Below, piece after piece: positions 20,616 through 21,059 of a DNA stretch of 51,285 nucleotides. The stretch is from a phage. Position 1 is the stretch's first letter. Each line of letters begins with the position of its first letter. Below the pieces are notes generated by a model. It worked only from the letters and a program-made list of their open reading frames with translations, was not told the origin of the DNA and made no database searches. The DNA is taken from the sequence record PZ445413.1; one strand, written 5' to 3'. A program made the position numbers and the translations under genes.

Positions 20616-20658
20616 ACTATACACGATCTCGACCGGAAGTTTTAGCAAAAAGTGCTAT
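20616..20658 (-). repeat. box cassette upstream of Cor-like lipoprotein gene
   Basis: minus strand ATAGCACTTTTTGCTAAAAC ... TATAGT ... aacgagga-ATG. Confidence 0.5.
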
Positions 20659-20784
20659 CGTTTGTTTTCTTTTGTTCCAGTGTGTTCACGAATTTGCGGA
20701 GGCGTAAATTTGGCTCATTTTTTAACCAGCTATTGAGCAATAAGTATACAGTAAATATTACTATATATATGAAAAATAAGAGTT

Positions 20785-20810
20785 TATTTATTTATATATA
20801 TCTATTTGTT
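20785..20810. repeat. 26-bp AT-rich repeat, copy 1
   Basis: TATTTATTTATATATATCTATTTGTT identical to 42258-42283; in divergent intergenic region. Confidence 0.6.
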
Positions 20811-21031
20811 TCTTTTTGTTATCTATGTTTCATGGGTTTTTGGTTGGTTGTGGTGATTTCACTTTGTGTAATGGTCATTTTGTTTATGTGTATCTATTCC
20901 TATATATCCGGCGCAAATCGGTGAACATGGTAAACATGAAAACAACAAAGCCAAAATCAATAACTTACGATGCAATTTTGTTATCACCATAGAAAACAAA
21001 CAACAGAAAACAAAAAATAACATCACACCTA

Positions 21032-21059
21032 TTGACTAAACGCGCAAAATGGCTAGAAT
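21032..21059 (+). promoter_or_regulatory. sigma70-like promoter for recombination module
   Basis: TTGACT - 16 nt - TAGAAT about 30 nt upstream of ATG 21088. Confidence 0.5.

Follow-up and report, generated by a model that had tools for sequence, protein, structure and literature searches.

Two paralogous non-coding modules around a shared 26-bp repeat as a candidate replication origin of T1-like phages

The sequence record PZ445413.1 (51,285 nt), analysed over its full length and referred to here as the window, is the complete genome of the T1-like Escherichia phage PaulSarasin (Drexlerviridae, Tempevirinae, Changchunvirus). Two of its intergenic regions share an exact 26-bp AT-rich repeat, TATTTATTTATATATATCTATTTGTT, found on the + strand at 20785-20810 (copy A) and 42258-42283 (copy B), and the question raised by this locus is what such a repeat does. 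No replication origin has been reported for the T1-like family. The 2024 re-annotation of phage TLS did not identify one, found no iteron-like repeats anywhere in the TLS genome, and does not mention the elements described below (PMC11447400); the SU57 paper likewise did not find an origin (PMC7718038). The reading favoured here, at a probability of roughly 0.45, is that the repeat marks a candidate origin composed of iterons and an unwinding element, present in two paralogous copies and coupled to early promoters.

The two exact copies were confirmed at the positions given by the original prediction, and the genome contains no further copy, even when up to three mismatches are allowed. None is expected by chance, as 0 of 100 dinucleotide shuffles yielded a 26-mer match. 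The flanking similarity of about 40 bp that had also been noted is real, with a repeat finder widening the match to 43 nt that are 88% identical (20774-20816 versus 42247-42289), but its size was understated, the intergenic regions A and B being collinear over about 380 bp in pairwise alignment. A profile of the approximately 100-bp core, built from related phages, matches the 51-kb genome at only two places, with E=5e-13 for A and 1e-11 for B. The 26-mer is the AT-rich centre, together with the first adjoining box, of a non-coding module of about 380 bp, and not a separate unit.

The two modules are 21 kb apart and, as predicted, each lies in a long intergenic region between divergent transcription units. 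Region A, which is 97% identical to its counterpart in vB_EcoS_W011D, is flanked by the leftward cor (-) and by the rightward exoVIII (+) of the exoVIII/erf recombination operon. Region B separates the leftward and rightward early-gene blocks, between a gene encoding 91 amino acids (aa) (-) and a DUF7174 gene (+); the small terminase gene is located some 8 kb further downstream.

Conservation was assessed with alignments of region A from 16 diverse relatives, including T1, of region B from 21, likewise diverse and with Rtp-like phages among them, and of paired A and B cores from 18 genomes. The region B loci were gathered by helicase anchoring; anchoring on the poorly conserved downstream gene gave only four. 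Both modules were found in all relatives examined, T1 among them, with a degenerate version of the 26-mer at both loci. The exact 26-mer is restricted to the closest relatives, and other genomes share 12-21 nt at that spot. The original prediction had named absence from close relatives as what would refute it, and the exact repeat is present in the closest ones. Searches for similar modules in plasmids and E. coli chromosomes returned none.

The exact match could in principle stem from ongoing gene conversion or concerted evolution. As a general cause this was rejected, since core identity between A and B is 0.59 within a genome and 0.58 between genomes (permutation P=0.17); the raw longest-common-substring matrix for A versus B is confounded by a 21-nt promoter repeat, described below. 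With same-genome identity no higher than between-genome identity, A and B are old paralogs that stay near a common consensus, and it is this shared consensus that selection preserves. The exact 26-nt identity is a lineage-specific extreme of the consensus, or perhaps a small local conversion patch.

On the + strand, both modules share one order of elements. A phased TGTTnC array is followed by a CTCCGCA motif, an AACA-N5-AACA pair, and the AT-rich core, which consists of a TATAAT-like hexamer, an ATCAAT.AGTTA element, and a GTTATATATATCT run, the latter being the 26-mer in this phage. A second TGTTnC array, with invariant TGT positions about 10 bp apart, leads into a variable G/T-rich spacer. 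Beyond it lie a TATATAT run and a second CTCCGCAA motif, then a tandem 9-bp array in the opposite orientation, the IHF-consensus element WATCAANNNNTTR, an A-rich AACA tract, and finally a canonical sigma-70 promoter. In module A, these elements are placed as follows.

20661-21031, + strand: module A, between the cor and exoVIII promoters, collinear with module B, its architecture kept in relatives including T1
20663-20689, + strand: left array TGTTT / TGTTCC / TGTTCAC, about 10 bp apart (motif map, alignment conservation)
20731-20830, no strand: AT-rich core, candidate unwinding element, with a degenerate TATAAT-like box and the 26-mer; least stable 100-bp duplex
20785-20810, + strand: 26-mer copy A, whose 3' end TTTGTT continues into the first box of the central array
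20807-20832, + strand: central array TGTTTC / TGTTAT / TGTTTCA, 9-10 bp apart, with TGT..TGT columns invariant in the family alignment
20833-20899, no strand: variable G/T-rich spacer, unconserved in sequence and length, with no conserved open reading frame (ORF)
20920-20946, - strand: right array of tandem 9-bp units GGTGAACAT GGTAAACAT GAAAACAAC (motif map)
20955-20967, + strand: predicted IHF site AATCAATAACTTA, a strict match to the consensus WATCAANNNNTTR
20992-21022, + strand: A-rich AACA-box tract, immediately upstream of the -35 hexamer
21032-21059, + strand: exoVIII early promoter TTGACT-N16-TAGAAT, kept in all relatives and equivalent to TLS promoter P51 (TLS supplementary table)

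Module B, the paralog upstream of the rightward early operon, is laid out in the same manner.

42130-42516, + strand: module B, with the same architecture in 21 diverse relatives
42149-42178, + strand: left array TGTTCA / TGTTCACAG, then CTCCGCA (motif map, alignment)
42209-42222, + strand: AACA-N5-AACA pair AAACAAAATAAACA, just left of the AT-rich core (family consensus AACAnAAAnAAC)
42208-42307, no strand: AT-rich core, candidate unwinding element, with TATAAT (42235-42240) and the 26-mer; second least stable 100-bp duplex
42258-42283, + strand: 26-mer copy B, an exact match
42280-42307, + strand: central array TGTTGT / TGTTCACAC / TGTTTAT, within the stretch that resembles phage P4 (see below)
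42405-42432, - strand: second CTCCGCA(A) and right array of two tandem 9-bp units CGTTAACAG (motif map, alignment)
42450-42462, + strand: putative IHF-like site TTTCAATGACTTA, one mismatch to consensus
42517-42544, + strand: early promoter TTGACA-N16-TATAAT, unique in the genome in matching the sigma-70 consensus at 12/12 positions; counterpart of TLS promoter P01 (TLS table)

The CTCCGCA(A) motif occurs twice per module at fixed places, following the left array and immediately ahead of the right 9-bp array, at 42172-42178 and 42405-42411 in B and at 20693-20704 (inverted) and 20908-20917 (CCGGCGCAAA) in A. It is kept across Tempevirinae in both modules, and we know of no factor that recognises it.

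The boxes of the modules are regularly spaced. Across 65 distinct modules, the step from one TGT/ACA triplet to the next is 9 or 10 bp in 27% of cases, versus 7% in the coding background. The arrays run in opposite orientations on either side of the AT-rich core, which is itself flanked by repeat sets, AACA-N5-AACA on the left and three TGTT boxes on the right, with further arrays beyond. TATATAT is similarly concentrated, with 13 occurrences in A plus B against 5 in the remaining 50 kb, and 18 against 2 in T1. The box sequence varies by clade: TGTTnC in Tempevirinae, TGTAAC(A) in the T1 group (six copies in the two modules and none elsewhere), and TGTATAC in Rtp-like phages. Such variation by clade among phages of the same host points to a phage-encoded binder rather than a host protein.

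A related observation comes from T1 itself where, downstream of the region-B promoter (locus L063, about 290-345), a 9-bp palindrome GTGTAACAC and its partner GTGTTACA stand around a 17-bp spacer. Judged by sequence, this pair just past the rightward early promoter looks like an operator, a hint that the T1 clade employs the box family of the modules in promoter control as well.

The closest parallel to the boxes is found in the satellite phage P4. In the annotated P4 record, the type 1 repeats of ori are TGTTCACC or TGTTCACA, placed in tandem at 9-11 bp and in both orientations, and they occupy two loci, ori and crr ('cis required region for replication'). The first unit of the right array of module A, GGTGAACAT, is the reverse complement of TGTTCACC. 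When only these two P4 forms (TGTTCAC[C/A]) are taken as the a priori pattern, three of the five sites in the genome fall inside the modules, which make up 1.5% of it (P=3e-5); they lie at 20920 (-), 42159, and 42292, with one-mismatch neighbours 9 bp away. Across 51 relatives, the TGTTCAC density in the A module is 31-fold that of its flanks. In addition, 42277-42303 agrees with P4 crr at 24 of 27 positions (local alignment z=6.5).

The replication proteins add to this lead. Residues 20-263 of the P4 alpha protein match the genome at 27836-28591 by tblastn (E=4e-12), identifying a homolog of the alpha primase domain, and the phage primase is also recognised by Pfam Zn_Ribbon_Prim (E=4e-14). 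The phage helicase is a DUF3987 protein encoded at 36782-38425 (-). In database entries, this helicase starts 21 codons downstream of the longest ORF, giving 526 aa against 547 aa.

The second line of evidence is the stability of the duplex. Nearest-neighbour free energy was computed along the genome in windows of 30, 60, and 100 bp and, at all three sizes, the two least stable segments are the A core and the B core, in this phage as well as in T1. At 100 bp, the energies are -100.1 kcal/mol for A and -102.8 kcal/mol for B, with a clear gap to third place at -115.6 kcal/mol; both cores are more than 5 standard deviations (sd) from the genome mean (-137.8 kcal/mol, sd 6.9). The least stable 100 bp coincides with the core at 81 of 82 related loci. 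The unwinding-element role proposed in the original prediction thus gains partial support, and the extreme meltability of the cores is suggestive, not diagnostic.

A third component is a predicted binding site for IHF. The genome contains only five strict matches to the IHF consensus, one of which is the site at 20955-20967. The element WATCAANNNNTTR is conserved in position: an offset of -73 to -79 from the -35 hexamer is occupied in 30 of 51 relatives, and a second one, at -255 to -287, in 12, while the T1 clade has no consensus match at either conserved offset. The nucleoid-protein site that had been proposed therefore receives partial backing from these predicted sites at fixed positions, and so does the proposed duplicated regulatory module, since collinear modules of about 380 bp, each ending in a sigma-70 promoter, occur family-wide. 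The phased box arrays, the identity with the P4 iteron, the IHF sites, and the promoters did not appear in the original prediction, yet they are the most informative features of the locus.

Several observations weigh against reading the modules as an origin. Other comparisons of the modules with P4 ori and crr stayed at background, with no extended similarity beyond the 27 nt, and the boxes are short and degenerate (6-8 bp). The experimentally defined P4 ori, used for calibration, ranks only fourth to fifth in duplex instability within P4, and strong promoters are also AT-rich. The origin-binding domain of P4 alpha (PF03288) was not found by tblastn, hhalign, or a custom hidden Markov model (HMM); the HMM, built from 120 homologs and run against all stop-to-stop ORFs of this phage and T1, gave a best E-value of 2.8, versus 8e-105 for the P4 control. 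In hhalign comparisons of the helicase family with alpha, the Walker A motif alone aligns. Pfam and PHROGs screens of about 40 early ORFs returned one DNA-binding candidate only, a Cro-like protein. The C-terminal 108 residues of the helicase are predicted to form a winged helix (predicted local distance difference test score of 80, and about 88 for the last 80 or so residues), whose matches in the PDB are weak (E at least 0.019) and generic (kleisin, cullin, and MCM winged helices), and whose third helix is acidic. Lastly, both modules always have a strong sigma-70 promoter immediately downstream, its -35 hexamer in contact with a box pair, an arrangement that a purely transcriptional role would account for just as well.

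The helicase winged helix, considered as a reader of the iterons, was rejected because of its weak, generic matches and acidic third helix. Sequence searches against solved structures, made for the helicase and the primase, returned nothing relevant. The Cro-like candidate is a Cro-type helix-turn-helix (HTH) protein of 147 aa, encoded just upstream of the primase gene. Among the early genes beside region B, the one at 41286-41585 (-) matches Pfam PF25180, 'Phage antiviral trigger protein Gp54' (E=4e-32); judging from this match, its product is possibly a trigger of a host defence system. On the present comparison, the modules are not classifiable as P4-type origins, although they may work like one.

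The position of the modules gives rise to the main competing explanation, namely that they act purely in transcription. Curved A-tract DNA, IHF sites, and operator arrays would then form a long upstream extension of two immediate-early sigma-70 promoters, through which a phage regulator such as the Cro-like 147-aa protein boosts early transcription and later shuts it off; the AT-rich core would serve as a further promoter, upstream of these, or as a UP-like element. This explanation is somewhat unlikely, even if much of the local context agrees with it. Each module ends in one of the few canonical sigma-70 promoters of the genome, matching the consensus at 10 of 12 positions in A and at all 12 in B, with spacers inside the 16-18 bp limits; both have counterparts among the sigma-70 promoters reported for TLS, which number only three (TLS table). 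The AACA box pair abuts the -35 hexamer, and the 14-mer AAACAAAATAAACA that precedes the core in B is repeated at 42503-42516, directly against the -35 of the B promoter. The TATAAT hexamer of the core is widely conserved, and a Cro-type HTH regulator is encoded by the phage.

The core hexamer, nevertheless, counts against this explanation. In no relative does a -35 accompany it, the critical final T is missing from about one quarter of B modules (TATAAA, TAAATA), and copy A has a degenerate version; for lack of a -35 and with the final T so often lost, it is not counted as a demonstrated promoter. About 350 bp with five arrays far exceeds the needs of known promoter-proximal control, and the third sigma-70 promoter has neither such a module nor boxes in its region. 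A purely transcriptional role also leaves unexplained both the identity of the boxes with a replication iteron and the presence of an alpha-like primase. Moreover, 8-bp boxes in 9-bp tandem are atypical for Cro-type dimers.

The promoter of module A also bears on the start of exoVIII. Its first in-frame ATG, at 21049, is the RefSeq start in a close relative and overlaps the promoter spacer and the -10 hexamer TAGAAT (21054-21059). The start kept in relatives is the ATG at 21088, with GGAG at 21075 as its ribosome-binding site, and the annotated N-terminus is probably 13 codons too long. The right boundary of the intergenic region had originally been set at 21048 on the basis of the first ATG.

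Another set of promoter-associated repeats is distinct from the modules. The 21-nt motif AATAGCACnnnTTGnTAAAA has at least 19 copies in the genome, always oriented with local transcription, for example at 1565, 29191, 31698, 32861, 43685, 44242, 45537, 46530, 47532, and 48710 on the + strand and at 6176, 9927, 20639, 36248, 38416, 39153, 40441, 41563, and 41923 in reverse orientation. About 17-18 nt further on, each copy has TATAAT, CATAAT, or TATAGT, in many cases with a GC-rich hairpin in between (e.g., GGCGCAACGGAATGCGCC). These ATAGCAC...TAAAA repeats have already been described for TLS and T1, with function unknown (PMC11447400), but the hairpin inside their promoter spacer looks to have gone unremarked so far. 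Like the modules, the 21-nt aaATAGCACnnnTTGnTAAAA repeats are family-wide and intergenic, and one copy (20640-20658) borders module A while another (41924-41942) lies 185 bp left of module B; unlike the modules, they have another sequence, some 19 copies, an orientation that follows transcription, and a -10 hexamer behind them. Transcription units also converge at three near-identical bidirectional terminator hairpins, AAAGGAGCC-TTTC/TAAC-GGCTCCTTT, which are edged by A and T runs (20326-20357, 23342-23373, and 35929-35960).

Packaging is another function that could employ box arrays. Under this explanation, the arrays and IHF would be bound by the small terminase, as at P1 pac or lambda cosB, with B as the real pac and A as a secondary site or relic. 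Arrays around a variable centre with an IHF site do resemble P1 pac. The T1 equivalent of region B spans the ends of the T1 sequence record, within the annotated terminal repeat; both this record and that of TLS begin beside module B, inside the terminal repeat, and several isolate contigs end within region B. Published work also places pac in the untranslated region corresponding to B (PMC11447400, PMC7718038). The record and contig ends are, however, scattered, and most of them fall in a left block specific to B (about 42010-42090) and not in the shared module. In addition, the single pac start of T1 (PMC11447400) is hard to square with an equally conserved full copy 21 kb away. A packaging role for the modules is, on balance, quite improbable.

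The B-left block at 42010-42090, outside the shared module, is of interest in its own right. It carries palindromic TTGCA/TGCAA motifs (CGTTGCACATCATGCAAG, GTGATTGTTGCA, GATTGTGTGGGGAATGG) and is rich in ATTGCAAT and GATTGTTGCA palindromes. It is kept in T1 around record position 1 and, as ATTGCAAT repeats, in Rtp-like phages, region A has no such block, and several sequence records open in it. Compared with the shared module, this block is the better candidate for pac, or small-terminase recognition, which leaves the shared module for another function.

The original prediction had also noted that the two copies would encode similar hydrophobic peptides, and a last alternative is that the element encodes a small hydrophobic membrane peptide or belongs to a structured non-coding RNA. 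A very hydrophobic ORF of 51 aa with an ATG start does run over module A (20769-20924, +), and the inverted arrays pair together in the minimum-energy fold. This ORF is common to the two closest relatives and confined to the Changchunvirus lineage (W011D, and a longer version in the genome labelled L004). Across 78 distinct instances, an ATG ORF of at least 40 aa covers the AT-rich element in only 14, with inconsistent frames and starts, and in the T1 clade stops occur in every frame within 8-14 codons. As had been correctly stated, only copy A has an ATG and neither copy has a ribosome-binding site. The G/T-rich spacer is conserved neither in sequence nor in length. The coding reading was rejected on this lack of ORF conservation, and with it the claim of similar peptides; the hydrophobic translation is a by-product of T/G-rich DNA, and the 51-aa ORF is probably fortuitous rather than a micro-protein of this lineage. 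A structured RNA or hairpin was rejected as well, with no Rfam match anywhere in the genome at the gathering threshold and fold energies of the two modules no better than those of shuffled sequences (z=-1.35 and -1.61). Either form of this alternative is very improbable.

The candidate origin can be compared with several known systems. With P4 ori/crr, the modules share the 8-bp box TGTTCAC[C/A], its arrangement in tandem at 9-11 bp and in both orientations, the presence of two separated cis elements, the crr match in B, and a primase homologous to the alpha primase domain. They differ in that the phage has neither the alpha-type origin-binding domain nor an alpha-type helicase, that most of its boxes are degenerate (TGTTnC) and clade-variable, with no extended sequence homology, and that 21 kb separates its modules, which, unlike ori and crr, are full paralogs, and which carry putative IHF sites and sigma-70 promoters.

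Origins of phage-inducible chromosomal islands and Staphylococcus aureus pathogenicity islands (PICI/SaPI) offer a second comparison. In experimentally tested PICI origins, two sets of short iterons flank an AT-rich region presumed to melt (PMC6092414, Fig. 2). The layout around the 26-mer is the same, and separate primase and helicase-type replication proteins are encoded in both cases. PICI origins, however, adjoin the pri-rep genes and occur once per element, whereas the phage modules, with a function predicted from sequence, are far from the primase and helicase genes, duplicated, and equipped with more arrays.

In origins of the pSC101, R6K gamma, and oriC type, an AT-rich unwinding element is found together with an IHF bend, phased sites for the initiator, and initiator sites that overlap a promoter. 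This component set is shared with the phage modules, but the iterons of these origins are 17-22 bp long and have known Rep or DnaA binders, while the phage boxes are 6-8 bp. By eye, without a formal scan, no convincing DnaA box was seen in the modules. As in T4 oriF/oriG and the primary origin of T7, a -10-like TATAAT stands directly upstream of the least stable DNA, and the non-template strand downstream of it is G/T-rich in the phage modules. Such a strand would favour a persistent RNA-DNA hybrid. The phage core differs from these in having no -35 or activator box and a -10 that is not universally intact, and its transcript is putative.

GC skew was rejected as a replication signal, as it merely tracks transcription direction. 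Literature queries with the bare iteron octamer returned unrelated primer sequences only, and a query for T1 transcriptomics returned nothing usable.

Taken as a candidate origin, the modules suggest the following sequence of events. A phage-encoded protein would bind the TGT-NN-AC(A) boxes, phased at 9-10 bp and flanking the AT-rich core in opposite orientations, while host IHF would bend the DNA at one or two fixed sites. The resulting strain would open the weakest duplex of the genome, at the 26-mer region, where the DUF3987 helicase and the P4-alpha-like primase would load. Through the box pair at the -35 hexamer, the same protein could also modulate the early promoter. As to the two copies, they would act as two origins or as a cooperating pair resembling ori and crr of P4.

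A broader and more tentative proposal is that Drexlerviridae as a whole replicate from an ancient paralogous origin pair, or from an origin with a crr-like enhancer, marked by P4-like boxes, IHF bends, and the weakest duplex, and that the boxes are read by an unrecognised phage protein unrelated to the alpha domain. If this holds true, the same iteron would be paired with a different reader, and origin firing would be wired directly to two immediate-early promoters.

T1 belongs to the seven classic T phages, and few coliphages or Klebsiella phages are met more often than its relatives, both in collections and among therapy candidates. If the modules are the origin or origins, a long-open question becomes testable, with defined coordinates and with boxes, IHF sites, and an AT-rich core in which defined point mutations can be made, and module DNA provides a handle on the initiator. 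They would also show an alpha-type primase system working with primase, helicase, and origin reader as separate proteins. Should their role be purely transcriptional, the modules nonetheless set out how the control of the family's two immediate-early promoters is built. Knowledge of the origin and of pac would be useful in engineering such phages and in understanding how they transduce and how they interfere with plasmids.

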